DNA of 64,000 nucleotides from a virus (IMGVR_UViG_3300042514_000542:60370-124369); one strand, 5' to 3'. Shown: positions 108 to 40,816, counted from the first letter of the stretch. Notes: generated by a model from the letters alone, not told the origin. Translations and numbers: made by a program.

Positions 108-304
108 TACTCCCAACCTTCATACTTCTTATAGGTTGGTTGACATTCTGGATCAAGTTTAGCCTTACGTCTTTCTTCCCTCTTCTTGGACTTCTTTAGA
201 AAGTCTCTATACCTTGATCGTTTATGTGAACCATCCTTCTTGGGAAAGTCCATATACCTTTCGATTTGTTCATTCATAATGAGATAATTGTTCAATCTTA
301 TCAA
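104..304 (-). CDS. hypothetical small basic protein (TTG start in track)
   Basis: ORF whose TAA stop is embedded in a motif copy; Lys/Arg-rich product. Confidence 0.35.
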   Translation of the reverse strand: MIRLNNYLIMNEQIERYMDFPKKDGSHKRSRYRDFLKKSKKREERRKAKLDPECQPTYKKYEGWEY

Positions 305-334
305 AAAGTTAAGTCTGTTCCGATAAATAATATT

Positions 335-6515: not shown

Positions 6516-6537
6516 ATTATAGTTCGGTTTTAATTAA
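6516..6537 (-). promoter_or_regulatory. cassette motif copy
   Basis: +strand ATTATAGTTCGGTTTTAATTAA. Confidence 0.6.
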
Positions 6538-9638: not shown

Positions 9639-11297
9639 TTAGATTTCAACCATATTGAGGATTTCTTGGTCTAGGGCAATGTTGATAAGATCATAAGTAG
9701 TCTTAATCTTACCACTTAGGAAGCTTACAGCACTGGCTGAATATCCGCCCATATAATATACGTTCTGAACATCTTTACCAGTCTCAAACTTCTCACCAGT
9801 TCCTCGACCATATGCATTACTTTGAAGGTTCCAGAGAACAATCACAAAGTTATCTACATAAGCCTTGGAGAATCCAGCATTACGAAGTGTGTCTAGTGCC
9901 GCTTCAACATTAGTTCTACCTAGTGATGCTGGATTAAACTCTGAATCGGACACTGCTAGAATTCCACTAGGAAAATCTGATTCAGGTGTTCCCTCTCTCT
10001 TCATCTTAGCGAAAAGATTAATAACACTTTGGAAGTTAGTTCCACCATAAAAAGAAGACTTATCATTCTTCCACTTATCGACAGGTGTTTGACCAACCCA
10101 TTTCCTAAGTTTAGCATCGGAATTGAATTCAATCCAATGACCTGCAAAGGTTCCTTGTAGGAATTCACTGAAATATAGTGCTAGAGCTTTACCGACATTA
10201 TAACAACTTGATTTAGTTCCCGGACATTGTGAAGACATGCTGCCGCTTACGTCTCTTACCACGATAAGATCAGTAACTTCGTTATCTCTTGCCTTTTGGA
10301 CAAGTGTATCGAATTGCTTATTGATAGTTGCTTCCTTGTTCTTAACACCCATCCAAGAACCTTCAAAGAGTTCATGAACAAATCCAGTATACTTAACGTC
10401 CTTGGTTTCGGGTGCAGTAATCCATGCGGAATACTTGTCACTAAGACCATGATTCTTAAGGAACTTGGACTTAACAAGAATCGACAATGCACGACCATGA
10501 ATCTTATCAAACTCAAGTTCATTGAACTTAGCCTTAGAGATTAGCTTTTGCCAATCATGTGCGGTTCCACTGTTCTTAAGCTTACGATATTGCTTATAGG
10601 TAGAAGGGGTTTCCTTTTGTCCAAAGATCAATGAGCAGATCCACTTAGCGATTGCATTGTTGGATTGTGCATCAATGGTAGTAGCTTGGCTACGTGCTTT
10701 GATTTGTGGGAGATACTTCTTCACAAGATCACAAGTATTCTTGTTATGAAGTCCTGCAAGAATCAATTGACCAAACTTATCCCAATCAAGCTTACGGTTA
10801 TTCCAACCATTATAGCTAAGGTCATATTGAAGCATGGTGAATACATCGTGCCACGATCCAAGAGATACAAACAATAGGATGTTATTCCAGAATGCTTGTG
10901 GAGACTTGTCATGTAGCCAAATCATACGCATAATTGCTTCATGCTTAAGTTCAGTTCCCTTTTGAGGGGATTCAGTCTTAGTTCCATCAGGAAGATTAAC
11001 CGTGCGAGGAATGGTTCTCATAAACAAGGCAAACTTAGTAGCCTTAAGAGGATCTTCACCCCACAACATTTCACAATCTTGTGCGATTTCAGAATACTTA
11101 CGAGGAACTTTATACTTACCTGCTTTGGTGAACTGGTCAGTTAGGGAATCACCAGAACTTGAAAATTTCTTAGCACCGTTACCTGAACGGGTTACATTTG
11201 ATTGAGCCTTTGCATTATTTAGGAATGCATTAACTTCTCCACGGGTGACAGCTTTCTTAGTAGCTACGACTTCTGGTTTGCGTTTGTTTTCGAACAT
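9639..11297 (-). CDS. vWA-domain protein (MIDAS motif DVSGSM; DUF2828-like)
   Basis: 552 aa; LIVVRDVSGSMSS is a von Willebrand A MIDAS motif; unusually long ~90-nt leader. Confidence 0.5.
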   Translation of the reverse strand: MFENKRKPEVVATKKAVTRGEVNAFLNNAKAQSNVTRSGNGAKKFSSSGDSLTDQFTKAGKYKVPRKYSEIAQDCEMLWGEDPLKATKFALFMRTIPRTVNLPDGTKTESPQKGTELKHEAIMRMIWLHDKSPQAFWNNILLFVSLGSWHDVFTMLQYDLSYNGWNNRKLDWDKFGQLILAGLHNKNTCDLVKKYLPQIKARSQATTIDAQSNNAIAKWICSLIFGQKETPSTYKQYRKLKNSGTAHDWQKLISKAKFNELEFDKIHGRALSILVKSKFLKNHGLSDKYSAWITAPETKDVKYTGFVHELFEGSWMGVKNKEATINKQFDTLVQKARDNEVTDLIVVRDVSGSMSSQCPGTKSSCYNVGKALALYFSEFLQGTFAGHWIEFNSDAKLRKWVGQTPVDKWKNDKSSFYGGTNFQSVINLFAKMKREGTPESDFPSGILAVSDSEFNPASLGRTNVEAALDTLRNAGFSKAYVDNFVIVLWNLQSNAYGRGTGEKFETGKDVQNVYYMGGYSASAVSFLSGKIKTTYDLINIALDQEILNMVEI

Positions 11298-11387
11298 ATT
11301 GTTATTATTGGTTTGTTGTTGAAATTTAATTTACTCTATCTTTTTGGTTTGTCAAGCGATTGGCTTGAACTTTCTTTTGTTGAAGCT

Positions 11388-11409
11388 ATTGTATTTCGGT
11401 TTTAATTAA
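11388..11409 (-). promoter_or_regulatory. cassette motif copy
   Basis: +strand ATTGTATTTCGGTTTTAATTAA; serves the vWA gene through a ~90-nt leader with hairpin CAAGCCAATCGCTTG. Confidence 0.55.
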
Positions 11410-11912
11410 TCTTTCAGAACTTGTAGTCTCCATTTAGCCGTTGATCTACTAATCTGTCTCAATTCCTTTTGGTGTCTATGATGATCAATATCATTCTTAG
11501 CTTTATCGTTTAGAATTCTACGATTGGGGATTTTAATATTATCATAATCATATTCACTTATAAATTGTGGAACATAAAAATAAGAATTTACTGTATCCAT
11601 GGGTTTCTTAAATCTCCACCAACTTCCAAGTTGATAACACCAACATTGATATTTTTTCCAGTATTCATTTTTCTTAGATCGCAATCTAATACAAAACAAT
11701 AGACCTTCACGTTTAGGAAAACCGGGATCATCACATCTTTCAATATATCTTAATGGGCCATCATAATCTCTTCCTTCTTTAGCATAAGCTAACAATTCAT
11801 AATCATAACACTCTTCGGGTGTCAATGGTTCTTCATCTTCTTCGATTGGGATCTGATGCATGATACTAGAGAAGTCAGCATACCAATCAAGTTCTTTAAC
11901 TTTTAGTTTCAT
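11406..11912 (-). CDS. hypothetical protein
   Basis: 168-aa ORF. Confidence 0.5.
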   Translation of the reverse strand: MKLKVKELDWYADFSSIMHQIPIEEDEEPLTPEECYDYELLAYAKEGRDYDGPLRYIERCDDPGFPKREGLLFCIRLRSKKNEYWKKYQCWCYQLGSWWRFKKPMDTVNSYFYVPQFISEYDYDNIKIPNRRILNDKAKNDIDHHRHQKELRQISRSTAKWRLQVLKD

Positions 11913-11924
11913 GTCACTATTGTA

Positions 11925-12230
11925 TTATGGTAGATAATGGGTTACAAACCTTTCCTTAGCTTCCTTAAAATTCCTAGCACCACCTTCAAGATAGTGAAAA
12001 ATATTAGCACCGGAAAGGTCAATAACATTTAGTGGTTTAAAGAAATGTCTAAACACATTACCCTTGCAATCAACAATATACCAAAGGAAACCCTTACCAT
12101 TATCCTTCAAAAATTCAGATAGTAAGCATCCACAACTATTCTTATCAAGATTACCAGTTAGCATATCCAATGGTCTTTCGTCTGGTTGCTCCATCATCCA
12201 ATTATAAACATCTGTTATTGTGTATTTCAT
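11925..12230 (-). CDS. hypothetical protein
   Basis: 101-aa ORF. Confidence 0.5.
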   Translation of the reverse strand: MKYTITDVYNWMMEQPDERPLDMLTGNLDKNSCGCLLSEFLKDNGKGFLWYIVDCKGNVFRHFFKPLNVIDLSGANIFHYLEGGARNFKEAKERFVTHYLP

Positions 12231-12236
12231 ATCGTT

Positions 12237-12258
12237 ATTATAGTTCGGTTTTAATTAT
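12237..12258 (-). promoter_or_regulatory. cassette motif copy
   Basis: +strand ATTATAGTTCGGTTTTAATTAT. Confidence 0.6.
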
Positions 12259-12261
12259 GGT

Positions 12262-13032
12262 TCAAACATCCCACAGTCTAGCAAAGAATTCATCAAGTTC
12301 TTCTTTGGTTATCACGACCTTCTTACTAAAGATATAATCATTGATATCATTATAGTTAGTTAAGTTGAAGTTTTCACCATTAACATAAGACCACCATGAA
12401 CCATTCTTTTGTTGATCGGTGCATTCGGTAGCCCAATTATGTCCAATGTTGTGAAGCATTTCATGTTGATCGGCACGACCTTGACCATGTAGTTCTTTGG
12501 GTGAGAAGAATTGATTACAGAACATACTAAGACTATTACGTTCCCAATCCTTTACTCTCCATAGGAAGACATTGGCAACATCATCTTTAGGACATTGGAA
12601 TGCACGGGCATCAAAGATAGCAGGATTTGAATCTGCAAAATCCCAAACGTTGAAGAATTGTTGATAATTTTTAATTACCCAATTCTTATTAAAGTATGCT
12701 GTCATCATTGCAGCAGTAACACTTTCAATCTTATTCTGTCTACCACCAAACCATTGTTGTGTTTCAATGGTATCACTATCATCCAATACAAATGTCACTT
12801 CATCACTTTGAGCATATAAGGCTTTACATCCTTGCATTTGTTTTGCTACCTCTTTAGCAGACTCAAACATACAAGTAATAAGTGTTTGATCGAAAGGTCT
12901 TTGACAACCCTTTGTGAACTGACTAAAGCACTTGCCATCCACTCGTATAACTATAGGAATTTTAGGTAAGAAATAATTCTCACTTATAGATTCATATCGT
13001 TTTATTCTATCCCCCAAAGAGTCATTTTTCAT
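12262..13032 (-). CDS. Thg1-like protein (tRNA-His guanylyltransferase family, 3'-5' polymerase)
   Basis: RIKRYESISENYFLPKIPIVIRVDGKCFSQFTK...RPFD matches the Thg1/TLP N-terminal palm motifs; 256 aa. Confidence 0.55.
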   Translation of the reverse strand: MKNDSLGDRIKRYESISENYFLPKIPIVIRVDGKCFSQFTKGCQRPFDQTLITCMFESAKEVAKQMQGCKALYAQSDEVTFVLDDSDTIETQQWFGGRQNKIESVTAAMMTAYFNKNWVIKNYQQFFNVWDFADSNPAIFDARAFQCPKDDVANVFLWRVKDWERNSLSMFCNQFFSPKELHGQGRADQHEMLHNIGHNWATECTDQQKNGSWWSYVNGENFNLTNYNDINDYIFSKKVVITKEELDEFFARLWDV

Positions 13033-13972
13033 AATTCCATTTATATCCTTTATGTGTTTGTCTTTTCCCTTTACAACAAGCTACGATAGCTGATGGATCA
13101 AATCCAGTCGATTTGATGCTATCCCATGTTTTAATATGGTTATCATTTAAATCCTTTTGTTCAACTCTTATCCTGTTGTTTACGGGTGTGAAATTTATAT
13201 TATTATTCTTAAAGTAGTTTTTGATGCATTTTATAGGAACACCATATTTTTTGTAAAGCCTGTATATTGTATACTCTTCCGTTTTGAAATCTTTAACTAT
13301 ATCTAAATATTTTAAACTATGATCAATTGGTCCATCTTCATCAATTTTAGAATTTTTTAATTGTTTTATCTCCCACTTATGTTTGTATGATTCTACTGGA
13401 CAGTCACCAATATAATTTAAAAAATGTTTAGCAAATATTCGTTTGATATATATTCTGTTATTGGTGAAGTTGATCCATGATTTCCATTCCTGTAATTGCC
13501 CATTTAGAAACTCTAAACTATCTTTATCGAAGGAATCTGTGCATAATTTAATATATCCATGACTCTTATCTAATGAACCATCACCAACATACCATAACAG
13601 AATTATAGTGTTTGTCAACTCTAAATCTTTCGGAACTATTTTAAGTCCTTCTGGATACCACACCATTCTAAGGTTGTAGAATGTTATGCTGCTCTTAGTT
13701 CTTATGCTATAATTTATATATGTCTTCTTTGTTCTCTTATCGTAAATTTCTCTTCTGATCGGACCATCTTTATATCTGGGAGATACCAAGTCTTTAAGTT
13801 GATTCCATACATACTCCACATGATCTAAATTACTACTACCATACATGAAGCAAGAGCTTTTACCCTTTATAGATAAGCACCCATCACCTAATAAGCATCC
13901 TTGAATTACTTCTAATTCGTATTGTGTTAAATTTATTACACTCATACTATTATTTAGTGTAGAGTGTAACAC
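13022..13972 (-). CDS. LAGLIDADG homing endonuclease
   Basis: Two LAGLIDADG-type motifs (LLGDGCL..., LWYVGDGSL); overlaps the Thg1-like gene start by 11 nt. Confidence 0.6.
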   Translation of the reverse strand: MLHSTLNNSMSVINLTQYELEVIQGCLLGDGCLSIKGKSSCFMYGSSNLDHVEYVWNQLKDLVSPRYKDGPIRREIYDKRTKKTYINYSIRTKSSITFYNLRMVWYPEGLKIVPKDLELTNTIILLWYVGDGSLDKSHGYIKLCTDSFDKDSLEFLNGQLQEWKSWINFTNNRIYIKRIFAKHFLNYIGDCPVESYKHKWEIKQLKNSKIDEDGPIDHSLKYLDIVKDFKTEEYTIYRLYKKYGVPIKCIKNYFKNNNINFTPVNNRIRVEQKDLNDNHIKTWDSIKSTGFDPSAIVACCKGKRQTHKGYKWNYEK

Positions 13973-15424: not shown

Positions 15425-16924
15425 TTAGAAGTGTTTTGCTACCCTCTCACGAATCTCTGCAAGCGTCCATTCTCGAATAATTTTCCCGTTGTTGAAGACT
15501 TCAACAAATTCACAATTAAGAACATCATCCCAAGTTGCCTGATCCTTTAGGTAAAATTCACCTTCAAGATCTTTATAGACTGCGAGCAATCCTTTAGCCG
15601 ATTTCTTCATACCACTAGTATCAGTTTTAGGATCTTTGTAAATTTCCACCAATTCTCCATTCTTAACACAAGCTGTAGCTTTACAAGCCCACCCATCAGT
15701 ATCTCTTGTAACCATTTGATATGTAAAACTTCCGATACCCAAAACAAGATTAGTAGATGCGAAACCCTTAGCTTTAAGACCCTCGCAGATTCTTTCTGCT
15801 ACCTCTAAAGTCACTCCATCACCAAGGATAGCACCAACCTTTTCGTGTAGGACTTTATAACCCTTATCATTAACAGTTCCCCCAAAAATATCCCATAGAA
15901 GTTCAACAGTTCCCAATCTTTCGGGACTACCTTCTGGAGCATCAGGATCACCAATGATAATTAGAACATTATCACCACTATCAGGTCTAAATACCGTTTT
16001 ATTAACGAAGTGTCCTTCACGGGAAAGGATAGCCCTTTGCACATCTTCCTCTCTAAGAGTTACGTTTAGGAAAGACCAATAATCGTAGGTGTCAGAAACT
16101 AAGCTAACAATACCATAAGGTTGAACTTCAGTGATGATGTGAAGCATCATTTCCTTCTCGCTTTTATCTCCCCACGAAGAAACCACGCTATGCTCAGTTG
16201 CGCTCACACTACATCCGACTAATTCTTCATCCGAATTAGCATTGTAATACTCTTCGGCAAAGTCTACACCCCAAACAGTATCAGTTCCTACGAAGCTAGT
16301 TAAATGCCCCATATCTACTAATGCAGCAGCCTCGGTTCCCATACAACCACGGGCAGAAAAATTATGACCCTGAAAAGGAACAAATGTTTCGTCACCAGTT
16401 TCCTTAGCATATTTTTCAAGCAAGAGTCTAAACTGATTTGCGGTAGTCGCAGAAGTAGATAAAGGCCAATAATTAGCACTAATAATAGTTTCAAGATAAT
16501 TAGTTACCCAAAAGAAGTTTTCATCATTAGGTTTAGTATTCCAATATTGAAATGTCGGAACCTTATATGGAACCTTACTACCTTCAGGGAGAGCATATAC
16601 TTGGATAGGTAGATACCCTAGATCATGTAATGCTTCCATGTGCTTAGTTCCTACAACATTCTTCTCTCCCAAGTAGTTATTAACCCTTCTAGTAAAGCGT
16701 TTAATTACCTTTTCCTTTGGTTGATCAAAAAATCCATTCCATTGGTTGATGAAAATCTCTTTAATAACATACTGCATACCTAGTGCAACTACATGTTTCG
16801 GAATGTTTTTTCGATAGGATTTTCTAGGAGTTCCATTACTCACTACTTGTTCGGTATCTGGGTGATAAGCGTTCTTATGGAACATTTTATACCCATCAAT
16901 TTGTGTTTCAGCGTTGTTTTGCAT
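15425..16924 (-). CDS. nicotinamide phosphoribosyltransferase family protein (NadV/NAMPT-like; candidate Namat of an NARP1-type NAD+ reconstitution pathway)
   Basis: 499 aa; length and overall sequence match the NAMPT family from memory of phage NadV proteins. Confidence 0.6.
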   Translation of the reverse strand: MQNNAETQIDGYKMFHKNAYHPDTEQVVSNGTPRKSYRKNIPKHVVALGMQYVIKEIFINQWNGFFDQPKEKVIKRFTRRVNNYLGEKNVVGTKHMEALHDLGYLPIQVYALPEGSKVPYKVPTFQYWNTKPNDENFFWVTNYLETIISANYWPLSTSATTANQFRLLLEKYAKETGDETFVPFQGHNFSARGCMGTEAAALVDMGHLTSFVGTDTVWGVDFAEEYYNANSDEELVGCSVSATEHSVVSSWGDKSEKEMMLHIITEVQPYGIVSLVSDTYDYWSFLNVTLREEDVQRAILSREGHFVNKTVFRPDSGDNVLIIIGDPDAPEGSPERLGTVELLWDIFGGTVNDKGYKVLHEKVGAILGDGVTLEVAERICEGLKAKGFASTNLVLGIGSFTYQMVTRDTDGWACKATACVKNGELVEIYKDPKTDTSGMKKSAKGLLAVYKDLEGEFYLKDQATWDDVLNCEFVEVFNNGKIIREWTLAEIRERVAKHF

Positions 16925-16977
16925 AATTTTATTTAATATTTTTGTTGGAATTATTTACGGAGTGACTAAATAATAGT

Positions 16978-17766
16978 ATGAAGTATTCAAAAGAAGAGGA
17001 ATCATTTATTATTGAGAACTACCCCAAATTCGGTGCGACTTATTGTAGTTCGGTTTTAATTAATAGAGATGTAGAAGCTGTCGGAGCTAAAGCTAGACGA
17101 ATGGGATTGCGACATGAAAGCAATTTTAAACATCCATCATTATGTAAAAATTTTTCTATAGACATAATTGAAAATCCGACAAAAGAGTTTGCATACTTAT
17201 TGGGGTTCTTATGGGCAGATGGATATATTTTAAAAAAGATTGATAAGAAAGGATTCAACCATAATAGAATTGTGTGTGAGATAGTGTCCGATGATTTTGA
17301 TATGATATGGAATAATTTTAAAGATTTTAGTAAGTGGTCTGTTAGTAAAAGAAAAAGAAGAGAGAATTGGAAGGAAACCAAAACTGCGACCATTAACAAT
17401 AAATATCTTTACGAATTTCTAGAATCTTTAGGTTTCAAATCTAAGCTTGAAGGATTCGATAAAGTATTTAAATACCTCCAGAAATTCAATCTTATTGATT
17501 ATTTTATATGTGGATTATTTGATGGTGATGGACATACTGATTTTAAAAAATTAATAGAATTATCATCTTCCATTTCCCAGAATTGGAAATCCATTGAAGA
17601 AATATTTAAAATTAATAACATTTCATACGGTCTTTATTATTACAAACATCCTACTAAAAACCATTCTGCATCCATTATTAAGATTCAAAATATTGAAGGT
17701 TTTAACTGGTTCAATAAAAACTTTCTTAAAAATGATATAGGTTTAAAAAGAAAGAGACTTAATTAA
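16978..17766 (+). CDS. LAGLIDADG homing endonuclease (N-terminal HTH-like region)
   Basis: LLGFLWADGY and GLFDGDGH motifs. + strand; its N-terminal codons read through a cassette motif copy at 17042-17063, so the true start may be the internal Met in RRMGLRHE. Confidence 0.55.
   Translation: MKYSKEEESFIIENYPKFGATYCSSVLINRDVEAVGAKARRMGLRHESNFKHPSLCKNFSIDIIENPTKEFAYLLGFLWADGYILKKIDKKGFNHNRIVCEIVSDDFDMIWNNFKDFSKWSVSKRKRRENWKETKTATINNKYLYEFLESLGFKSKLEGFDKVFKYLQKFNLIDYFICGLFDGDGHTDFKKLIELSSSISQNWKSIEEIFKINNISYGLYYYKHPTKNHSASIIKIQNIEGFNWFNKNFLKNDIGLKRKRLN
17042..17063 (-). promoter_or_regulatory. cassette motif copy displaced ~118 nt from the NAMPT-like start by homing-endonuclease insertion
   Basis: +strand ATTGTAGTTCGGTTTTAATTAA, lying inside the + strand endonuclease ORF. 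Confidence 0.5.
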
Positions 17767-18203
17767 ATTGTAAACGTCCACTTAGGTTTCTTAGGATGAA
17801 CGAAGGTGTTAAGAACACACTCAGCAATTCTCTTATGTGACATACCATTAGAACCATTGGCGGAAAAGCACTCACCATCATTCAAATCGGAAGCACAATA
17901 TTCACTAATACCACCAGTAATAGGATATACTAGATCGGGATTTACACCATCCCACCCAAAAAAATCAATAACATTTTGATGTGGGAATGCATCCTTATCA
18001 ATGTATCCTTCATCATTCGGATCATCTGGAATTTCCACTCCACATTCCTTAGCAACATTTTGTGCTACTGCTAGACAACAGCGACCACCATTTTTATACA
18101 TACCTCCGGTAGCCTTCTTCTTATTCTTAATTAGTGCTTCTGCCCAAAGTTGATTGCGTTGTTTGATTTGAGTCTTAGTTGGGTTTAGTAGGTTGTTTTT
18201 CAT
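17763..18203 (-). CDS. hypothetical protein
   Basis: 146-aa ORF. Confidence 0.5.
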   Translation of the reverse strand: MKNNLLNPTKTQIKQRNQLWAEALIKNKKKATGGMYKNGGRCCLAVAQNVAKECGVEIPDDPNDEGYIDKDAFPHQNVIDFFGWDGVNPDLVYPITGGISEYCASDLNDGECFSANGSNGMSHKRIAECVLNTFVHPKKPKWTFTI

Positions 18204-18212
18204 TGTATCAGT

Positions 18213-18234
18213 ATTATAGTTCGGTTTTAATTAA
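18213..18234 (-). promoter_or_regulatory. cassette motif copy
   Basis: +strand ATTATAGTTCGGTTTTAATTAA. Confidence 0.6.
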
Positions 18235-18252
18235 CGGTAAACGACAATTTCT

Positions 18253-19173
18253 TCATAGCTCAATTTTCATGCACACAACTCTCTCATCATGTGGATAGAA
18301 GTATTTGGTAGTCCAATTTTGTTTGGAATTTGTGGTATAAACCTTATCAAAATGCTCAGATACGTTTTTGATGCCATCATAGCAATCAGAGTGTGTGGTG
18401 AATAACATAAGCTTGCCACAATTCTTTTCACGAAGTTTCTTACCAAGGCCAATGAATGTTCCACCCATCGAATTAATATCATCGCAGATAAGTGTAGGAT
18501 GACCACCTAGATCATCAGCACCTACGAAGAACTCCTTAATAGAACCATCCTTGACATCACGAACTTTCTCACAACGAATTAGGTTGAATGTCTTAGCGTG
18601 ATACATGCAAGCAAGGTATTGTGTAATCTTACCTACGCGCTTTCCAGCACCAGCATCAGGACATACGATATTCCATTCCTTTTGGTTGACATCGCTTTGA
18701 ATGATTTGATCAATATATTTCAATTCATCAAGAACAATAACATTGTTAAGCAATGCTGGAGTCACTTCACTATGAGGACAAAGGATAGTAACACTGTTGA
18801 ATCCACAACCATTAATCATATCAGTAAAGACCTTAATGGTTAATGGTTCACCTTCATTACATACGCGGTCTTGACGAGCGGCGGGAAAGTATGGAAGAAT
18901 AAGTCTAATGTCATTAAAACCCATACGACGAGCAGCATCATTTGCCAGAATAATATCAAACAAATCGCCAATCTTATTATATCGTTGAGTGATTACCAGA
19001 GTAGATGCTTCTGGACATGCACATTTGTTAGTAATCTGAAAGTGCGGCTCCCCGCCTTTGAAGTCAAATTTCTTATAGAATACCTCAACACCCTCGAAAG
19101 GTGCGAAGGTTTCATCTAGGTTTAAAACGTATGGTCGTTCTGCTTTCATGTTCCAATGTATATGCTGCTTCAT
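18253..19173 (-). CDS. ribose-phosphate pyrophosphokinase (PRPP synthetase)-like protein; candidate ADPR-pyrophosphate synthetase (Adps) of an NARP1-type pathway
   Basis: 306 aa; LPYFPAARQDR, PDAGAGKR and DDI..MGGT resemble Prs motifs. Confidence 0.55.
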   Translation of the reverse strand: MKQHIHWNMKAERPYVLNLDETFAPFEGVEVFYKKFDFKGGEPHFQITNKCACPEASTLVITQRYNKIGDLFDIILANDAARRMGFNDIRLILPYFPAARQDRVCNEGEPLTIKVFTDMINGCGFNSVTILCPHSEVTPALLNNVIVLDELKYIDQIIQSDVNQKEWNIVCPDAGAGKRVGKITQYLACMYHAKTFNLIRCEKVRDVKDGSIKEFFVGADDLGGHPTLICDDINSMGGTFIGLGKKLREKNCGKLMLFTTHSDCYDGIKNVSEHFDKVYTTNSKQNWTTKYFYPHDERVVCMKIEL

Positions 19174-19179
19174 GTTGCT

Positions 19180-19201
19180 ATTGTAGTTCGGTTTTAATTA
19201 T
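19180..19201 (-). promoter_or_regulatory. cassette motif copy
   Basis: +strand ATTGTAGTTCGGTTTTAATTAT. Confidence 0.6.
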
Positions 19202-19259: not shown

Positions 19260-20273
19260 TTAAGCAGGATCAAGAGTTACAACAGTAACACCATCCACTT
19301 CATCCCATTCATACCACAAGTCTTGTAGAATGTTTAGAACGGTTTCCTTGGTGATCCAAGCAGGAGAGAAACTATTCTGAATTTGGCGAATAGTAACTTG
19401 ATCATATCCAGCCTCTTCCTTTCTTTGAAGGTAGGTTTGAACCTTTCCGACTTTAGCTAGATACTCTTCATTAACCTCTTCGGTATCATCTTCAATGGTA
19501 TCGAAAACATCTTGACCTTTGCTATCCACAACAGAAGTGAAGATTTCCTCCACGAAGTCAGCAACAACTTCATACTTGGAGACACGGCACTTTTGGAATG
19601 AATAGTCTTTTGGAACAGATACTACATCCTTTGGATTAACCTTAACAAGAATAAGTCTTTGAGAGAATCCACGGGCATAGTCCAATGATCCACAGTGAAG
19701 TCCAAAGCTACATTCATTGGCTCGATTATCATCGACACAGTTACGTGCAACTTCGATCACTTCACCAACACCATTATAGATATGTCCATATTCATCGACA
19801 GTTCCTTGAAGGACTCTTGTTTCGGTATTTCCAGTGGCAGAATAGTAGTCATTTCTAACACCCTTATAGGCAATTAGATCACCATCTTCGGTGATAGGAA
19901 GTTCCTTATAAGAAAGGAAGTCCGTAAGTTCTGCAACAGATTGTGCAGAAGGATTCTCACGAAGCTTTTCCCAAAACTTCTCAAAGTGTTCGATGGGAAG
20001 ACCATCACGAACAATCGAAATAACCTTGGTCTTCAAGGCTTTAGGTAGTGATTCTCCTTGATAGGTAACATCATCACCATTGATAATAAATCCAGCAGAT
20101 GTGATCTTGCTAATTGGATTGATGATTTCCTTCACAGCAGACTCTTGTTCATCCTTCGGTAGTTCAAAGGTCTTAAGAATTCTTGCGTAGTTTTTGTCGG
20201 TTTTCTCGACACGAACCTTCTCACCAGTTGATAGGAGAAGGATGATTGCGTTTGCGTTAGTTATGTAGTTCAT
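19260..20273 (-). CDS. hypothetical protein
   Basis: 337 aa; contains CSFGLHCGSLDYARGF; no family assignable by eye. Confidence 0.5.
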   Translation of the reverse strand: MNYITNANAIILLLSTGEKVRVEKTDKNYARILKTFELPKDEQESAVKEIINPISKITSAGFIINGDDVTYQGESLPKALKTKVISIVRDGLPIEHFEKFWEKLRENPSAQSVAELTDFLSYKELPITEDGDLIAYKGVRNDYYSATGNTETRVLQGTVDEYGHIYNGVGEVIEVARNCVDDNRANECSFGLHCGSLDYARGFSQRLILVKVNPKDVVSVPKDYSFQKCRVSKYEVVADFVEEIFTSVVDSKGQDVFDTIEDDTEEVNEEYLAKVGKVQTYLQRKEEAGYDQVTIRQIQNSFSPAWITKETVLNILQDLWYEWDEVDGVTVVTLDPA

Positions 20274-21047: not shown

Positions 21048-22976
21048 TCAATCTTTCATCAACAAAATCTTACGAAGATCCTGTCTAGTAATAGTTGCGT
21101 TGTAGTTGCCAAGAGATTTAAGGATACGTCCACGGGTAGAATTCTCCTTCATAATCTGTACCTTTACATCTTCAAGTTTTCCAAACTTAGAAGGATTTTT
21201 AGCAATATACTTTACAAGCCTATCCTTTGGTTTGGATGCATAGAAAAAGCCTTGAATGGAATATGTAGCATTATTAATGGCTCTTTGACGTTTATCCGCT
21301 TCATCAAATCTAGCCTTAGCGTCAGTATATTCTTGACTACTTGGAAGAATCCAACCAAGTTCCAAAAGGTTCTCAATCATCTTCTTACTATTAGCAGTCC
21401 AAAAATTATAGCGTGTTCCATAATCCTTGGTGGGTGCGATAGTTCTAGCATTGAGTTGATAAATGTTTTCCGTTTCAAGATGCCAATCATCTTCCAAATC
21501 AGCACCCTTGAAAGAATCCTTACGAACTTTTTCATCAAGTTCTTGAGCGGTGTAGTAATCCCTATTTCCATAGGAATTATACACAAGATATTGACCATTA
21601 TCTAGATTGGTATTAACAAGCTTTGGAAGTTTAAGGCTCTTAATATCTACAAAAGCACAATCGGAAATATCAATACTGTCGTCCAAGTTCTTCAACAACT
21701 CAGCATGATCCTTATTAGAAATATATACATATCCATCATAATCATCACCCTTAATAGATTTAAGGGCATTGATGAGACGTTTGTGCCAATTAGTGGTACT
21801 TTGAATGTCTGGAAAGATATAGATTATCTCCTTCGTGGCGGTAGAGTTAGCATAAACTTGTATAACGTGATCCCCAGCATTATCTCTACTACGTCCAACT
21901 TTATAATAATATTTATGAGTTGATGCGAAACAATCCTTGTATGAATAAGAGAACCAATCACCATCATAATTACTACCATGCTGCTCGTTACCAGTTACCA
22001 CAGCACCAAACTTTGGAGTAGTTAGGGCTGATACTTCTTCTTGTGTAATTTTATCTAATGCATCTTCAATCTCCTTAAAGACTTTTTCATTAAGGGGCGT
22101 GTTCTCAATACTCTCACGGGAGATTGGTAGTGATAATTTACCAATAGGAACATCTACCACGACATACTTAAAGAATGAACGGTTGACTCTAGTGGATGTA
22201 TTATATGGATAAATCACACCACCCATTCTCACATAATATTTATTACTATAATAGTCTGGTTCATACTCATATTGATGGAAAGTATATTCACCTACCGTCT
22301 TTGATCGAATTGGACTATATGGCTCGGCTTGGGTTTTATTGTACTGATTATCGAATTTAATATTAGAATTCGGTAGAAAGAATGATACGAATTTGTTGGT
22401 TTTTTGGCTAAAGTCATATACATCTAAAGACTTAACTTCAAGACTGATTTCAATACCTTGTTCCGTAGTAGGTTCTTGGGAGATTTCATAAATCTCACCA
22501 ACAGGGATACCACCATTACCAGCACCTAGAGTGCAGATGTAACTAGTCTTGATACCATTATGATAAGAGGTGATGTAGAAAGTATCACTATAGGCATGTC
22601 CAGCTTTTGAACCCACACCGAATCCACCAATGGAATCATTCTCATTGGTCTTAGTGGATTCGAAATACATACCGAAGACATTACGAACATCGTGATCATT
22701 AAGACCCTTTGCATAATCCCTTACAGCCCAAACCCATTGATTATTCACAGACTTAAGAGAAACATTTACAGCTTCTTTAATCTTATGTTTAACGTGTTCG
22801 TCTTGAGCATTGCAGATGTATTCTCGAATAACTGCAAGGGTTTTATCGGTATAGATACGATCCCGAAGGAAGTAGCTTGCCATTTCCATGCCCTTATTGG
22901 ACATACCCATGATACTCTTGTTATCTTTGATATCGTCAGAGGCGATAGTCTTTGTTGTTAGTATTCCCGTTTTCAT
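21048..22976 (-). CDS. rIIA: rIIA-like protein (GHKL/HATPase_c ATPase domain)
   Basis: 642 aa; N-terminal GHKL ATPase signatures (IREYICNAQDE...GGFGVGSKA); size and context fit T4-like rIIA. Confidence 0.45.
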   Translation of the reverse strand: MKTGILTTKTIASDDIKDNKSIMGMSNKGMEMASYFLRDRIYTDKTLAVIREYICNAQDEHVKHKIKEAVNVSLKSVNNQWVWAVRDYAKGLNDHDVRNVFGMYFESTKTNENDSIGGFGVGSKAGHAYSDTFYITSYHNGIKTSYICTLGAGNGGIPVGEIYEISQEPTTEQGIEISLEVKSLDVYDFSQKTNKFVSFFLPNSNIKFDNQYNKTQAEPYSPIRSKTVGEYTFHQYEYEPDYYSNKYYVRMGGVIYPYNTSTRVNRSFFKYVVVDVPIGKLSLPISRESIENTPLNEKVFKEIEDALDKITQEEVSALTTPKFGAVVTGNEQHGSNYDGDWFSYSYKDCFASTHKYYYKVGRSRDNAGDHVIQVYANSTATKEIIYIFPDIQSTTNWHKRLINALKSIKGDDYDGYVYISNKDHAELLKNLDDSIDISDCAFVDIKSLKLPKLVNTNLDNGQYLVYNSYGNRDYYTAQELDEKVRKDSFKGADLEDDWHLETENIYQLNARTIAPTKDYGTRYNFWTANSKKMIENLLELGWILPSSQEYTDAKARFDEADKRQRAINNATYSIQGFFYASKPKDRLVKYIAKNPSKFGKLEDVKVQIMKENSTRGRILKSLGNYNATITRQDLRKILLMKD

Positions 22977-24008: not shown

Positions 24009-24030
24009 ATTATAGTTCGGTTTTAATTAG
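24009..24030 (-). promoter_or_regulatory. cassette motif copy (read through as C-terminal ..LIKTEL of the upstream gene)
   Basis: +strand ATTATAGTTCGGTTTTAATTAG. Confidence 0.6.
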
Positions 24031-24666
24031 CTTGTTTGGAATTACTTCCGAATGCATCCAGTGTGTATCAGTCGTAACATGATTTGGTCTTACCCATTTC
24101 GCCACATTACTTCCAAAGTTTTCATATGCAAATCCATCGGCATTGCGAACTACGTATCCTTCATGCACCTTACGATCCCTATTCATAAAGTCTTCAATAT
24201 ATACTGAAACATTACCGGGACTTCTTTCATCCCATAGAAAAGGCTTGGCTATAATAGGAACATGTTCAATACCCAACAACTGACAGAACTCTACAGTATC
24301 TTTCCAAGACAAGCAATAGTTAGTTTCATCCCAAATGGAGAAACAGTAGAAGTATGATTTAAGATCATCATAACCAATGGAATGTTTAGCGTAAAGATTC
24401 TCACCACACACTCTCCATCCTTCTGGAATGTCATTCTTAATAGATGCATGAAATTGTTTGATCCATGAACGTGATGGATGATCTTTACTATCCAATGAAC
24501 GAGCATGATAATGATCATTATATAGAGTGGAATTTTCACCATCCATCTTTTCGGTGATAATCATTGACTTACCATTGAAGCATGAAGTATCCTTAAGAAT
24601 TTTATCATCAGAAGTCGCTCCCGGCGACCAGTTAAGGTGCTTTGTTCGTGGATACTTAATTTTCAT
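24010..24666 (-). CDS. RNA ligase family protein (nucleotidyltransferase motif I KxDG)
   Basis: 218 aa; N-terminal KYPRTKHL and MIITEKMDGEN match the RNA_ligase (Rnl2/PF09414-like) family. Confidence 0.5.
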   Translation of the reverse strand: MKIKYPRTKHLNWSPGATSDDKILKDTSCFNGKSMIITEKMDGENSTLYNDHYHARSLDSKDHPSRSWIKQFHASIKNDIPEGWRVCGENLYAKHSIGYDDLKSYFYCFSIWDETNYCLSWKDTVEFCQLLGIEHVPIIAKPFLWDERSPGNVSVYIEDFMNRDRKVHEGYVVRNADGFAYENFGSNVAKWVRPNHVTTDTHWMHSEVIPNKLIKTEL

Positions 24667-25000: not shown

Positions 25001-25029
25001 ATTGTTATTTCGGTTCCGATCCTATTAAA
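25001..25029 (-). promoter_or_regulatory. degenerate cassette motif copy
   Basis: +strand ATTGTTATTTCGGTTCCGATCCTATTAAA; an insertion disrupts the TTAATTAA box. Confidence 0.4.
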
Positions 25030-25834
25030 TTTTACACCATTTCCTGTCCATTTTAGGAACATCAATAGACAACAGTTTATTTCTCAAATAGATATACTTT
25101 CCAGTCTTTAAATTACCACCAAAAGATAGCTTATATACCATATTTGTATTTTTGATTTTTTTAATCGTGGTATCTATATTACAATAACTAGAAAACACGT
25201 TCTTTATAAATTGTAAAATATCACATGTCCCAATAATGGTAATAATTTGATTTCCATGGCTAGAAGCGATACAACCATCTCCATCTATATACCCTATTAT
25301 ATAGGCCAAAGCATGATTAACTGTTGGTATGTTTTCTGGCGGTTTAATCGTCGCCGTCTTATTCTGAGTAATGTTAAATCTATTAACTAATGTATTAACA
25401 ATATCTGGAACCCCGGTGAATTCACATCCGACATATTTTCCACCACCTCTAAAATAAAGTGGGCCATCATATTTAAAGTGTTCTTTTAACAGATTAACTG
25501 TCTTTAAATCTCTAGAGTGTAGCGTTAAACGAACCCTATTATTGGCTTCATCAATACATCCATCTGCTGCTAACAACCCAACCAAATACCAAGTCGTCAG
25601 ATCATCATTATCGAAAGCCTTCTGATCTATATTATATCTTGAGCCTTTACGTTTACCATTTCTTTTACTTTTACGCACACCAATATCTAAAATAGATCTA
25701 CAAGATTTACATTGGGAAGTGTAAAGGTTTTTACTTTTTGATCTTTTATAAAAAGATTCTAATGGTTTAGTTTCTTTACAGGTTGTGCAGGTTTTGTTGT
25801 TAGTCATACTATTATTTAGTGTGATCAACAACAA
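25025..25834 (-). CDS. LAGLIDADG homing endonuclease with N-terminal zinc finger
   Basis: LVGLLAADGCI and IIGYIDGDGCI motifs; N-terminal CTTCK...CKSC. Confidence 0.6.
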   Translation of the reverse strand: MLLITLNNSMTNNKTCTTCKETKPLESFYKRSKSKNLYTSQCKSCRSILDIGVRKSKRNGKRKGSRYNIDQKAFDNDDLTTWYLVGLLAADGCIDEANNRVRLTLHSRDLKTVNLLKEHFKYDGPLYFRGGGKYVGCEFTGVPDIVNTLVNRFNITQNKTATIKPPENIPTVNHALAYIIGYIDGDGCIASSHGNQIITIIGTCDILQFIKNVFSSYCNIDTTIKKIKNTNMVYKLSFGGNLKTGKYIYLRNKLLSIDVPKMDRKWCKI

Positions 25835-26346: not shown

Positions 26347-27009
26347 TCAAGACGTTCTTTGATGGTCTAAAATTTGTATGGATTTTGTTGACATCACATC
26401 TTCAATTTCGGAAAAACTCCAGACACTATTCTTATAGTCCCAACCAACATCCAATCCTTTTTGATATTGTGCATCTGGTTTACGACCTTTATCTTGTAGG
26501 TGGGAATGTCCAGATAATTGCCAAGCCCCACGATTATCCTTGTGCCAAATCCTTAGAGGAAAGTGGTTCATAACAATAATCTGCGTTCCTATCATAATCT
26601 CTTGATGATTTCCTATGAAGGTAAGATTCTTATACTTCAATGGGTAAATCTCCACATCGACAATACCGTATTGTTCTACTATCTGTTCCTTATAAATCCT
26701 ATACATGTTGGATTCATGATTCCCCCACATGACATAAATATTCTTACAATTAAGTCTATCGATCCAACCATTACATTGACCATCGGTAGCATTTAGGAAA
26801 AAATCTCCAAGGAACCACAATGTATCATCCTCACCAACAGTATCATTAATCTCCCTAAGAGTTTGTTCTGCTGCTTCCTCTGCATTATTATATCCACGCA
26901 TTTCCCAAATAGGGGAAGTCCAAGTTTTTGGATCGTGGAAAACATGCCAATCACTACTCCAATAGTGTTTGTTCCTCTGGTCGTATGGGAATTTCAGTAT
27001 TTTGTGCAT
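26347..27009 (-). CDS. metallophosphoesterase (calcineurin-like)
   Basis: 220 aa with GDFF, GNHE and GHSH motifs. Confidence 0.6.
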   Translation of the reverse strand: MHKILKFPYDQRNKHYWSSDWHVFHDPKTWTSPIWEMRGYNNAEEAAEQTLREINDTVGEDDTLWFLGDFFLNATDGQCNGWIDRLNCKNIYVMWGNHESNMYRIYKEQIVEQYGIVDVEIYPLKYKNLTFIGNHQEIMIGTQIIVMNHFPLRIWHKDNRGAWQLSGHSHLQDKGRKPDAQYQKGLDVGWDYKNSVWSFSEIEDVMSTKSIQILDHQRTS

Positions 27010-28654: not shown

Positions 28655-29890
28655 TTATTTTACTTCTAATAGATATTTGATTCTGATTTGATTTCCATTA
28701 TAGACAATCAATTCGTCATTTAGGAAAGATGTGTTTTGTGGCAATGCCCAGCAGGAATCATATCCAGATGGTAATTGACTGAAAGTATGTTTTGTATAGT
28801 AAGGATTACCCATCACGAAGTCACAGATAAATAACCACCCACTATCACCCTTACCTTGACCCCATCTACCTAGAGTATACCCTAAACTTTTTGATGCTGT
28901 TTCAGATCCGTAAGTCCCGTTTCCAAAGGCTTTTCCGGCTATAGCGACAGTAGATGGTGGACTAGGTTGTAGACCACTTTTTAAAATACTGAGAATATTT
29001 GCGGAAGAACTTCCATGCCACACTTCCTTAACATTCACCGGATTCTTCACAAAGTTAGCATTGTAATCCACAATGTCAACCTCATAAATGTTGATAATTT
29101 TAACATGTTGATAATGATGCATTGGTTTATTCGTGCTATTATACCAATCTTGAATTTTCTTAATAACCTTGGGATCAGTCACCAGAGACATATTGAGATT
29201 GAATACCTTTTCAGTAGAAGGTTTAGTGGCATCAACAGGTGCTTTAAGTGCCATTTCAACACTGTTATCAAGAGCGTCCAATACATCAGATTCCTTCTTA
29301 ACTACATCAACATTTGGAAAGATATTCTCATATAATAATCCACCACCCTTTGGTCTTGGGATGATCTTAAGATAATCATCAATTTTTTGATTGAAATCAT
29401 CCTGACCATTCTTCTTAATGTTTTTGAAGAAGTAATCGAGTAGAATACGTGCCTCTGAGATACCCTCTTTGGTTACGATACCCAAGGGGGTTTGGAATAC
29501 ACCGTTATTGAAACTAATACTAGTTGAGTTGGTGATCTTATGGACATTGCTATCTGCAAGTCTCTTAACAAGAGTCTTAAGACTACTATCCGATAACTTA
29601 ATTTGTGATAAGGCGATATCCGCCAATGACGTATTAGCAATAACCTTATTGGTTACAGCACCTTCCATTAGGACTTTAGCATGAGTATAACCCTTACGTT
29701 CCTTCTCACGGATTTTCTTATCAAAAAATGACTTACCAACACATCCGAAATCCTTTGATTGTGGGTTCTTTGCCCCAACTACACCAAATTCCGCCATAAC
29801 TCTTCCGTCGTCATGTAATTCGGCTTGCCAAAACTTATATGAGTTAGCTTTTAAGTCTGAGAAAACGAGCTTTACTTTTTCTTTTATCAT
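28655..29890 (-). CDS. poly(ADP-ribose) polymerase-like protein (WGR domain + PARP catalytic domain)
   Basis: N-terminal WGR-like YKFWQAEL...FGVVG. C-terminal VWHGSSSANILSILKSGL...TYGSE...IVYNGNQIRIKYLLEVK aligns with the eukaryotic PARP1 catalytic core (LWHGS...IVYDIAQVNLKYLLKLKF) recalled from memory. Confidence 0.65.
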   Translation of the reverse strand: MIKEKVKLVFSDLKANSYKFWQAELHDDGRVMAEFGVVGAKNPQSKDFGCVGKSFFDKKIREKERKGYTHAKVLMEGAVTNKVIANTSLADIALSQIKLSDSSLKTLVKRLADSNVHKITNSTSISFNNGVFQTPLGIVTKEGISEARILLDYFFKNIKKNGQDDFNQKIDDYLKIIPRPKGGGLLYENIFPNVDVVKKESDVLDALDNSVEMALKAPVDATKPSTEKVFNLNMSLVTDPKVIKKIQDWYNSTNKPMHHYQHVKIINIYEVDIVDYNANFVKNPVNVKEVWHGSSSANILSILKSGLQPSPPSTVAIAGKAFGNGTYGSETASKSLGYTLGRWGQGKGDSGWLFICDFVMGNPYYTKHTFSQLPSGYDSCWALPQNTSFLNDELIVYNGNQIRIKYLLEVK

Positions 29891-30171
29891 TAGTATGATT
29901 GTATTTCGGTTTTAATTATTCTTTCTATAACCCACTGTTGATATTGATATCCATCTTTTTGCGGATCATACAAATCATCATTATCAATACAATTCCATGT
30001 GTCTCCGACACGAATAGGAGTAAAACTTAAAAGATCGTTATATGTGTAAGTTAGACCATCACATAAGTTATTTGCGCATGAATACCTATCGGAAGATTCA
30101 TATATACGAATATTCTTTGGAATGTCCGATAACACTATACCGTATACCTTTTCGTGTTCATCCCATGTCAT
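29890..30171 (-). CDS. hypothetical protein
   Basis: 93-aa ORF. Confidence 0.45.
   Translation of the reverse strand: MTWDEHEKVYGIVLSDIPKNIRIYESSDRYSCANNLCDGLTYTYNDLLSFTPIRVGDTWNCIDNDDLYDPQKDGYQYQQWVIERIIKTEIQSY
29898..29919 (-). promoter_or_regulatory. cassette motif copy
   Basis: +strand ATTGTATTTCGGTTTTAATTAT. Confidence 0.6.
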
Positions 30172-31250
30172 AAGTCTAATAGTTGTTCCATTGCCACTTT
30201 CACAAGTTTATCTTCAACCACTCTATCATCAAGTAGACAGAATGCCAATGATGTTTGCCAAGCCTTGAATCTACCAGTGATATATAGTGCCTGTTCCTTA
30301 CGGGTTTCCAAAAGCTTAATATGATTCTTAAGTTCGTATTCTATAATATTGAGAGTATGAACATACTTACCATAAGATTCTGTGACCTTACCGATAAAGT
30401 CCTTACACTTCTCCGCAATTTCGAAATCAAGTGTCGTTTCGATGTAATTATAGAATTCCTTCTCTTCTACAAACTTAGGTGAAGCCAAGAACACATCAAG
30501 AACTTGCTTGATGCCTTTGATACCAGTAGCAAGCTTGTGGAGTTCACAGTATTCATCTGCCTTGATCTTCTTTAATGTTTGACCATCAGGTGAATATAAC
30601 ACTACGCCTTCTTTACCAGTCCATGCTGCAACATCAAGGATACATTCTTCGACAGAATTATATTCATACTTTTCAGGACGATTAACTCCAAACATTTTAG
30701 ATGAACCATCCAATGCGGCTTGATTTGCATATCTCATTGTGCGGTGTCCCACAATACCAACCAAAGTTAAAGTAGGTTCATCATGTTCACGAAGAACAAT
30801 AATGTTTGAAGGAGTGGTCCATTCAAATAACAATGATGATATCCCAGCATCCAACCAATTATTATCAAATGCCTTTGGATACTTCTTTATAAGAAGATCA
30901 ATCTCATGACCATTAGCCATTTGACGAGCATCAACAGTTCCACGGGTTCTTATGATAAGTTCCCCTTTATACTTTGAAACGATTAATAAACTTCCGTCTA
31001 ATTTATGTCGCGCTTCGATCTTCCATGAGTTGTCCCAAGGTTGAAAATCAGGACGCTCACCAAAGTTAGTGAACTTGGCAAAACCTTGTGATACTACAAA
31101 GTTATCAGACTTACGAACAATACAAGAACGGAATCGTGCATTGTCATCAAACCACTTCGTAGCCATATCGACAGGGTTGATCAACCAACATTCATCTCCT
31201 GCTATGGTGCAGTCTTTGAATTTGAATTGTTCTGGATCGGGTAACTTCAT
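30168..31250 (-). CDS. rnlA: RNA ligase 1 (T4 RnlA-like)
   Basis: 360 aa; motif I HKLDGSL (T4 Rnl1 KEDGSL); size matches Rnl1. Confidence 0.55.
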   Translation of the reverse strand: MKLPDPEQFKFKDCTIAGDECWLINPVDMATKWFDDNARFRSCIVRKSDNFVVSQGFAKFTNFGERPDFQPWDNSWKIEARHKLDGSLLIVSKYKGELIIRTRGTVDARQMANGHEIDLLIKKYPKAFDNNWLDAGISSLLFEWTTPSNIIVLREHDEPTLTLVGIVGHRTMRYANQAALDGSSKMFGVNRPEKYEYNSVEECILDVAAWTGKEGVVLYSPDGQTLKKIKADEYCELHKLATGIKGIKQVLDVFLASPKFVEEKEFYNYIETTLDFEIAEKCKDFIGKVTESYGKYVHTLNIIEYELKNHIKLLETRKEQALYITGRFKAWQTSLAFCLLDDRVVEDKLVKVAMEQLLDL

Positions 31251-40777: not shown

Positions 40778-40816
40778 CTATATTATTTAGTCAAAACTGG
40801 ATGGTTTCAACCAAAA

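Follow-up and report, generated by a model that had tools for sequence, protein, structure and literature searches.

A 64,000-nt stretch of viral DNA (IMGVR_UViG_3300042514_000542:60370-124369), hereafter the window, carries on its minus strand two genes that probably perform the chemistry of NARP1, a phage pathway of NAD+ reconstitution. The first, at 15425-16924, encodes a 499-amino-acid (aa) protein of the nicotinamide phosphoribosyltransferase (Nampt) family, a candidate nicotinamide ADP-ribose transferase (Namat), and the second, at 18253-19173, encodes a 306-aa protein of the ribose-phosphate pyrophosphokinase (Prs) family, a candidate ADP-ribose pyrophosphokinase (Adps). The locus is a new, divergent member of NARP1, which was described in 2024 and is present in about 4% of sequenced phages. 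A sequence-only reading of the window had proposed this assignment for a Nampt-like and Prs-like pair 1.3 kb apart, with phylogenetic placement of both proteins as a check. Its open reading frame (ORF) coordinates, families (Pfam, PHROG) and spacing proved correct, and the assignment is supported, the pair matching the computational definition given in the NARP1 papers fully or nearly so.

NARP1 was found in 4.3% of phages by Osterman et al., and has been validated in Bas63, SPbetaL1 and Fado (bioRxiv 10.1101/2024.02.11.579819), in ICP1 as NrsAB (10.1101/2024.06.17.599363), and in DyoEdafos. By homology with these validated systems, the pair would act once a host NADase effector (SIR2, TIR, SEFIR or similar) has cleaved NAD+ into ADP-ribose (ADPR) and nicotinamide. 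The Adps-like enzyme would use ATP to pyrophosphorylate the free ribose C1'' of ADPR, giving ADPR-PP. The Namat-like enzyme would then replace the pyrophosphate of ADPR-PP with nicotinamide, releasing pyrophosphate and yielding NAD+ directly, without nicotinamide mononucleotide (NMN) and without an NMN adenylyltransferase (NMNAT). The adenine of ADPR-PP would be gripped by a clamp in the Namat-like protein, formed by a loop (Y37/R38) and a helix (F400...M404...T406-R407-D408), and NAD+ would be restored after SIR2, TIR or SEFIR cleavage. The enzyme activity and the anti-defense phenotype of the module are likewise predicted.

Pfam assigns the Namat-like ORF to NAPRTase (PF04095, E 2e-35), and its PHROG match is 448 ('nicotinamide phosphoribosyl transferase', E 1.5e-176). 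For the Adps-like ORF, Pfam detects Pribosyltran_N (PF13793, E 4e-9) and Pribosyltran (PF00156, E 4e-5), and the PHROG family is 619 ('ribose-phosphate pyrophosphokinase', E 2.5e-67). Such generic Prs and NAPRTase/Nampt signatures also speak for classic salvage, in which the Prs-like protein would supply phosphoribosyl pyrophosphate (PRPP), the Nampt-like protein would form NMN, and the synthesis would be finished by an NMNAT of the host (NadD/NadR) or by one encoded in the phage genome beyond the window. The NCBIfam model that names the Namat-like protein points in the same direction, given that it also matches the Nampts of NARP2, the pathway of phage KVP40. Finer comparison, however, separates the window protein from these enzymes. 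Among solved structures it matches best, with 426 bits, the crystal structure of SPbetaL1 Namat from Lan et al. (PMC12774641; 9w5x/9w5w); mammalian NAMPT scores 195 bits. It is 48-51% identical to the SPbetaL1 Namat, ICP1 NrsB and an Acinetobacter protein, 40% identical to the Felixounavirus HY02 protein, which stands in for Bas63 in the comparisons, and only 30-32% identical to phage NARP2-type Nampts without a Prs partner. The latter references are those of Ruegeria phage V10 and Caulobacter phage Magneto (NMNAT-Nudix gene adjacent), and of D484, phi1_146054 and XacN1, for which the flanking sequence read contains no annotated Prs gene; KVP40 itself is not among them.

The same division is found in a neighbor-joining tree of 39 sequences (483 columns, 200 bootstraps). 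The window protein falls within the clade of SPbetaL1, ICP1 NrsB, the Felixounavirus proxy, muut, Rose5 and P108, which comprises all validated or NARP1-linked Namats in the tree and is split from mammalian NAMPT and the five phage Nampts in 200/200 bootstraps, so that it lies outside the KVP40-type Nampt clade and the proposed placement of the Nampt-like protein with the Namats is confirmed. At the base of the Namat clade stands a further solved 'nicotinamide phosphoribosyltransferase' (PDB 9ke8/9keo), which scores 360 bits with the window protein and presents GAQTYQRNTRD instead of the GS-aromatic clamp motif.

Among the NAD-contact residues listed by Lan et al. (PMC12774641), 17 of 20 are identical in the window protein. 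The three differences are A362 to G, which is a backbone contact, R40 to Y37 followed by R38, which is an allowed variant, and Y396 to M404. The catalytic core of the Nampt-like protein is identical throughout (F189, D215, the catalytic His, R306, D308 and others), and the conserved residues comprise D10, Y12, F189, S190, R192, D215, A242, the His of TEHS, R313, D315, G368, D369, G398, S399, F400, T406, R407 and D408. In the clamp loop, K35-S36-Y37-R38 aligns with T38-S39-R40 of SPbetaL1 and conforms to the published rule, according to which the third position is Arg, Lys or Tyr and the next residue stacks if the third is Lys or Tyr; the variant with Tyr followed by the stacking residue has been described for Bas63.

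The clamp helix, GSFTYQMVTRD, agrees with 10 of the 11 positions of GSX-phi-X-phi-X-phi-TRD, a motif with aromatics at positions 3 and 7; in the window protein these two are Phe and Met. At this site the NARP2-type and mammalian enzymes have GGGLLQ.../GGALLQKLTRD, and the presence of GSFTYQ... in the window protein therefore argues against salvage. Position 7 is occupied by Y in 61, H in 21, M in 3, F in 2, R in 1 and L in 1 of 89 motif-bearing close homologs. These counts show that the position is less strictly aromatic than the published logo suggests, although Met is still rare. In the SPbetaL1 Namat, the single mutant Y396K lowers activity only about 1.3-1.7-fold. As a natural variant, the Met at this position could offer a way of probing the clamp model from the literature.

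In both profile scores and motifs, the Prs-like protein sides with Adps rather than with cellular Prs. With the NCBIfam Prs model TIGR01251, whose cut-off is 113 bits, it scores 97.1 bits, compared with 106 for the SPbetaL1 Adps and 422.7 for E. coli Prs, and it lies far under the cut-offs of the NCBIfam Prs equivalog models, a position which argues against a PRPP-producing role in salvage. A profile built from six NARP1-linked phage Adps gives the reverse order (204 bits for the window protein, 107 for E. coli Prs). Against solved cellular Prs, the protein reaches at most 53 bits, whereas E. coli Prs reaches 123-147 even against archaeal Prs. The catalytic Lys, K162 of SPbetaL1, the mutation of which kills that enzyme, corresponds to K203 in the window and is invariant across ten Adps/Prs sequences. 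The window motifs PHSEVTPALL, KVRDxxDGxI and DDINSMGGTF, for which the Prs counterparts are LHAEQIQGFF, KRR-PR and DDMIDTGGTL, follow the Adps-group consensus PHS(D/E)VTPAL, K-x-R-(D/N)-x-x-(T/D)-G-x-I and DDIxxxGxTF.

The two genes are separated by 1,328 bp holding two genes, well within the ten genes or fewer of the NARP1 definition. All 10 relatives with upstream sequence (IMG/VR contigs L005-L010, metagenomic contigs L012, L020 and L022, and Shewanella oneidensis, L021) have the two genes in the same order, with the Adps-like gene upstream. According to Osterman et al., a Namat lies near 97% of Adps-clade genes, 94% of the phages with a KVP40-type Nampt encode an Nmnat, and no phage has both pathways, which makes a salvage role for this linked pair less plausible.

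That no NMNAT is present in the window, as the sequence-only reading had stated, was borne out. A six-frame phmmer search of the window, queried with two phage NMNAT-Nudix proteins and a Nudix/NrtR-like one, returned no match below E 0.1, and Pfam scans of about 45 window ORFs returned no CTP_transf_like, Nudix, Macro or NADAR domain. An NMNAT was also not found in the 10 kb past the window's right end, where terminase and baseplate genes are located, nor was an NMNAT-like ORF found within the 4-10 kb read on each side around L005-L010, L012, L020 and L022, a scan outside of which the Shewanella locus lies. The operon contains no Macro-domain ADPR-1''-phosphate phosphatase (Adpp), the mark of the NARP1-AP variant. 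NARP3 (PnuC + NadR) was also considered, and is irrelevant here.

Among named sequences, the Namat-like protein is closest, with identities ranging from 51 to 57%, to the products of chromosomal genes of Shewanella (57%), Iodobacter, Chitinibacter and Acinetobacter (51%), which are annotated as nicotinate or nicotinamide phosphoribosyltransferases. In Shewanella, the genes ahead of the Namat-like gene encode a Nudix-type NrtR regulator and a Prs-like protein. NrtR leaves DNA upon binding ADP-ribose, a behavior which would suit an ADPR-consuming operon. Given that the bacterial relatives carry the Namat-type motif GSFTYQHVTRD and that their Prs partners score 199 and 191 bits with the Adps profile, their annotation as NadV, in the sense of Nampt, is not evidence against NARP1, and database names fail to discriminate between the two enzyme types. 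Some bacteria carry NARP1 outside prophages (Osterman et al.; Lan et al., PMC12774641).

The top 'phage' match, L002 (CAKLQF020000015.1, 'Acinetobacter phage MD-2021a'), was rejected as a phage sequence: it is a bacterial chromosomal contig with ABC transporters, an AraC regulator and an efflux pump, and it carries a prs-nadV-Nudix cluster. Its 255-aa 'NadM', annotated as a bifunctional NMNAT/ADPR pyrophosphatase, matches the phage NMNAT-Nudix protein only weakly (about 31 bits, E ~2e-11) and is short for a bifunctional NadM-type enzyme, and for these reasons looks like an NrtR-type regulator.

Several points weigh against the assignment to NARP1. Position 7 of the clamp is Met rather than the adenine-stacking aromatic residue (Y396 in SPbetaL1), a substitution which would also be compatible with salvage. 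Namats also produce NMN from PRPP in vitro, and substrate preference is therefore not fixed by sequence alone. The nearest relatives include bacterial 'NadV' genes, conventionally annotated as Nampt. The search for an NMNAT spans the 64-kb window and 10 kb of a genome of about 206 kb, so that a phage NMNAT could lie in the remainder. The Adps placement was obtained from scores and motifs rather than from a tree with many cellular Prs. Finally, the Namat-like gene is without the 6-nt spacing to a gene-start motif that is usual in this phage, which leaves its expression uncertain. Set against the clade split, the clamp motif, the Prs scores and the absence of an NMNAT from the sequence covered, these points leave salvage distinctly improbable, and NARP1 chemistry remains the probable function of the pair.

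The same chemistry could also serve mainly to recycle by-products of the phage's own NAD+-consuming ADP-ribosyltransferases, with no anti-defense role. At 28655-29890 (minus strand), about 10 kb from the NAD+-rebuilding module, the window encodes a 411-aa NAD+-consuming protein with WGR, PARP regulatory and PARP catalytic domains (PF00644, E 7e-25), a eukaryote-like full architecture, and just past the window's right end lies an ART-PolyVal domain protein (L031, 5631-6443). Recycling would also agree with the housekeeping or regulatory appearance of the bacterial NrtR-Prs-NadV operons, a point raised in the discussion of Osterman et al. as well. However, ADP-ribosyltransferases attach ADPR to their targets rather than freeing it, and the Macro and NADAR hydrolases that could release it were not among the domains of the window ORFs. 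Furthermore, the module is anti-defense in every phage tested, and the slot between the two genes holds, in relatives, a NADAR gene, a family known to counter DarT. A main role in recycling is consequently regarded as unlikely, and anti-defense as the expected role of the module.

The window is phage DNA, with genes for tail sheath, tape measure, rIIA and rIIB, several RNA ligases and a Thg1-like protein. None of 50,697 phage records matched the locus in a search for near-identical DNA, and the phage is therefore novel at the DNA level. Public metagenomes contain identical proteins, the longest contig with them measuring 206,590 bp, and dozens of Prs-like proteins with 57-74% identity are found on contigs of 180-216 kb, part of them from Tara samples. 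These contigs indicate a family of aquatic phages, uncultivated and about 200 kb in size. The phage itself is a novel uncultivated aquatic myovirus with a genome of about 206 kb.

The sequence-only reading had reported a homing endonuclease gene between the Namat-like gene and its promoter motif. The endonuclease gene is present, on the plus strand at 16978-17766, yet a conserved gene encoding a 146-aa protein (17763-18203, minus strand) had been overlooked in the gap. The 146-aa protein has no match in Pfam even at E 10, in PHROG or in NCBIfam, and its fold, although confidently predicted, has no match among solved structures or viral models. Seventy homologs have 41-65% identity to it, and about 500 representative clusters were obtained with a profile search. 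Residues C42, C43, W84, N108, D109 and H123 are invariant, and C129 is nearly so. Its identification as a Macro phosphatase, an RyR-domain RyDEP, a NADAR or a papain-like enzyme found no support. The gene occupies the same slot in L022, but its family is not confined to NARP1 loci: L024 has a homolog, as does L023, where it adjoins a Gad2-like gene. The 146-aa middle genes of L012 and L020 were considered as homologs as well, but proved to be unrelated proteins of coincidentally equal length.

In other relatives, the Adps-Namat interval holds a NADAR gene, a HAD-like protein or an unrelated 146-aa protein. Given these different small genes, the interval behaves as a variable slot for small, probably anti-defense genes. 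NADAR-domain genes lie in this interval in L020 (4156-7476), L022 (2540-6070) and L007 (8191-11518), and the L020 interval additionally holds a 146-aa HAD-like protein with a DxDxT motif. NADAR is a family known as an anti-DarT factor (AdfN). In the literature, no description of NADAR inside NARP1 operons was found, both terms occurring together only as separate mentions. The 146-aa protein might convert another NAD+-derived defense product into ADP-ribose for Adps, by analogy with Adpp, which acts on ADPR-1''-phosphate, and RyDEP, which acts on cyclic ADPR, each giving ADP-ribose. We consider it rather doubtful, but worth stating, that the protein is a new NARP1 accessory or a stand-alone anti-defense protein and that the interval is perhaps a hot spot of gene swapping. 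With it, a structurally orphan family of small proteins is flagged as an anti-defense candidate.

The endonuclease is a free-standing 262-aa LAGLIDADG protein (PF14528, LAGLIDADG_3, 29.3 bits against a cut-off of 22.5; PHROG 4645), and its gene is intact. It is found in the window and in L019, and is not at the same position in L022 or L012. The L019 endonuclease is 70% identical to it, is also on the opposite strand, and adjoins a Namat that is 76% identical to that of the window. GC and AT skew are locally reversed at 16001-18000; this reversal and that at 44-46 kb are explained by plus-strand endonuclease genes.

L022, which contains rIIA, rIIB, Adps, NADAR, the 146-aa gene and Namat, is the closest syntenic relative of the locus. 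In comparison with L022, the window misses the NADAR gene and has the endonuclease as an extra gene. At the protein level, the two loci are 91% identical in rIIB and 89% in Adps, as well as 81-87% in the two genes downstream of Namat, but only 58% in the 146-aa gene and 48% in Namat. At the DNA level, identity is 84% up to the Adps stop codon, becomes patchy over the 146-aa gene, and resumes at 83% right past Namat, the flanks on both sides being 81-84% identical, while over the endonuclease and most of Namat similarity is none or weak. It is exactly this hole that a single blastn alignment with the L019 endonuclease and Namat covers, from 17756 to 15494 on the minus strand (2,285 nt, 71% identity).

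The simplest reading of this pattern is that the endonuclease and Namat entered the locus as one block from a different phage lineage, as would be expected if homing had been accompanied by co-conversion of the neighboring gene. The endonuclease would therefore not be the simple insertion that had been proposed. Given the 89% Adps identity to L022, Adps and the flanks appear to be vertically inherited, and by these alignments the locus is a mosaic. Identity by codon position is 0.76/0.87/0.47 for Namat (against L019), 0.74/0.87/0.50 for the endonuclease and 0.90/0.97/0.68 for Adps. These values indicate purifying selection on all three genes and, in the case of Namat, selection since the block arose.

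A gene-start motif, TTAAAACCGAACTAYAAT, is far more frequent in this phage than chance would give: allowing up to 3 mismatches, the window has 36 copies where 0.39 are expected, and every copy lies on the minus (coding) strand. Examples are found at 1700-1717, 6516-6533, 12237-12254, 18213-18230, 19180-19197 and 41513-41530, and in 20 of 35 cases the motif ends exactly 6 nt before the start codon. Such rigid spacing suggests either a phage-specific promoter with leaderless mRNAs or a translation-start element; if the motif is a promoter, transcripts would be expected to be leaderless, since its TAYAAT element lies 6 nt from the ATG. A scan of the locus for sigma-70 and terminator consensus sequences gave no enrichment over shuffled sequence. 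The motif is common to the window and L022 and is not in L012, L019 or L020. Adps is preceded by a copy at 19180-19197 (TTAAAACCGAACTACAAT, minus strand), 6 nt ahead of its start codon, and the 146-aa gene by a copy at 18213-18230 (TTAAAACCGAACTATAAT, minus strand), 9 nt ahead.

The start of Namat, by contrast, lies 117 nt from its nearest motif, a perfect 18/18 copy at 17042-17059 (minus strand), antisense within codons 22-28 of the endonuclease. In the endonuclease-free L022 the motif directly abuts Namat, and the L019 endonuclease is diverged at this site and shorter by one codon. The endonuclease has thus disrupted the normal arrangement of motif and gene, as the earlier claim held. It does not, however, lie between the two: the motif is inside the endonuclease gene, most of which is beyond it, and only the first 82 nt of that gene and a 53-nt spacer separate the copy from Namat. 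Namat would be served, if at all, by this antisense-embedded copy or by read-through.

This arrangement raises the question of whether the module is crippled, the endonuclease-linked rearrangement having uncoupled Namat from its start motif in such a way that Adps alone is made and the pathway does not operate. The displaced motif, together with the fact that no Shine-Dalgarno-like sequence is evident upstream of Namat, would favor such a loss. Yet the Namat ORF is intact with all catalytic residues kept, the same arrangement of endonuclease and Namat is found in L019 under the purifying selection described above, and the upstream motif copy is perfect and correctly oriented. An inactive module is accordingly hardly credible, and a functional NARP1 pair remains the preferred interpretation.

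Four further free-standing endonuclease-like genes are present in the window, at 13022-13972 (-), 25025-25834 (-), 44087-45100 (+) and 266-1030 (+), and correspond to a LAGLIDADG_2 protein with a NUMOD-like tail, a faint LAGLIDADG_3, a PHROG 4645 endonuclease and a weak REase/RAP-like match. BLASTP detected no similarity between them and the endonuclease at 16978-17766. The plus-strand endonuclease-like genes coincide with local GC/AT skew reversals. In some phages, Namat is split in two pieces about 0.7 kb apart (L010, 10001-12424; Pectobacterium phage CB7; Felixounavirus matches), with an annotated HNH endonuclease separating the two in CB7. From these cases, Namat seems to be a recurrent target or neighbor of mobile endonucleases.

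Upstream of Adps lie an rIIA-like gene (21048-22976), two small ORFs and an rIIB-like gene (19260-20273), both rII genes on the minus strand. Elsewhere in the window, an ATP-dependent DNA ligase (39046-41506, minus strand) is apparently split by an intein, the region comprising three ORFs. Splicing domains close ORF 40817-41506 and open ORF 39046-39897, and the ORF between these two, 39884-40777, has DUF7487 and a weak Vsr-like match. RNA/tRNA-repair genes are found at 9639-13032, 24010-24666, 26347-27009, 30168-31250, 34510-35157, 37075-38490, 45105-46365 and 49204-50277. The set comprises a Thg1-like tRNA-His guanylyltransferase, four RNA-ligase-family proteins, three metallophosphoesterases, a histidine phosphatase, cREC_REC (a cyclic-phosphate-processing receiver domain) and PHROG 850 (an RNA-binding protein). 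Its density suggests a counter to host anticodon nucleases.

Given that NARP1 has been known since 2024 and is common, the presence of this module will not surprise a specialist, and the established picture of NAD+ reconstitution is unchanged. The locus extends the reach of NARP1 to a family of uncultivated aquatic myoviruses of about 200 kb, in which the linkage of Adps-like and Namat-like genes is universal, yet lies inside a variable cassette. It also offers a concrete example of a homing endonuclease carrying an anti-defense enzyme gene between phage lineages.

In comparison with the validated NARP1 systems of Bas63, SPbetaL1, Fado, ICP1 (NrsAB) and DyoEdafos, the locus presents the same two families, the same order with Adps upstream of Namat, the same clades, the same catalytic residues and clamp architecture, and no NMNAT in the window. 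Its identity to them (48-50% for Namat, 30-38% for Adps) is within the spread among the validated members. It differs in that the two genes are not adjacent, the 146-aa gene and the opposite-strand endonuclease lying between them, in the Met at clamp position 7, and in having a Namat imported with the endonuclease from another lineage; it is also known from sequence alone. NARP1-AP of Vibrio phage Gary (Adps, the Macro phosphatase Adpp, Namat) has the same three-gene layout with an extra middle gene, although the homologs of the window's middle gene are not restricted to NARP1 loci.

NARP2, which consists in KVP40 of a Nampt and a bifunctional NMNAT/Nudix enzyme, shares the Nampt superfamily and the aim of restoring NAD+. 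The window protein nevertheless belongs to another clade, with 30-32% identity to NARP2-type enzymes and GSFTYQ in place of GGGLLQ, and NARP2 works without a Prs-like partner and needs an NMNAT, whereas the window has a Prs-like gene and no NMNAT was found in it. The bacterial NrtR-Prs-NadV operons of Shewanella oneidensis and Acinetobacter, and the bacterial NARP1 of Paenibacillus foliorum, have the same type of clamp motif and an Adps-like Prs immediately upstream. These operons differ in being chromosomal, in having a Nudix-type NrtR beside the pair (upstream in Shewanella; NrtR-like and downstream in Acinetobacter), and in being probably housekeeping or regulatory. The endonuclease, in turn, resembles the free-standing homing endonucleases of T4-like phages, which are likewise encoded on the opposite strand in intergenic positions, with the adjacent gene of the donor allele and the distant flanks of the recipient. 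Unlike the T4-like case, the enzyme here is of the LAGLIDADG type, and homing is deduced from the comparison of relatives rather than from an identified cleavage site.

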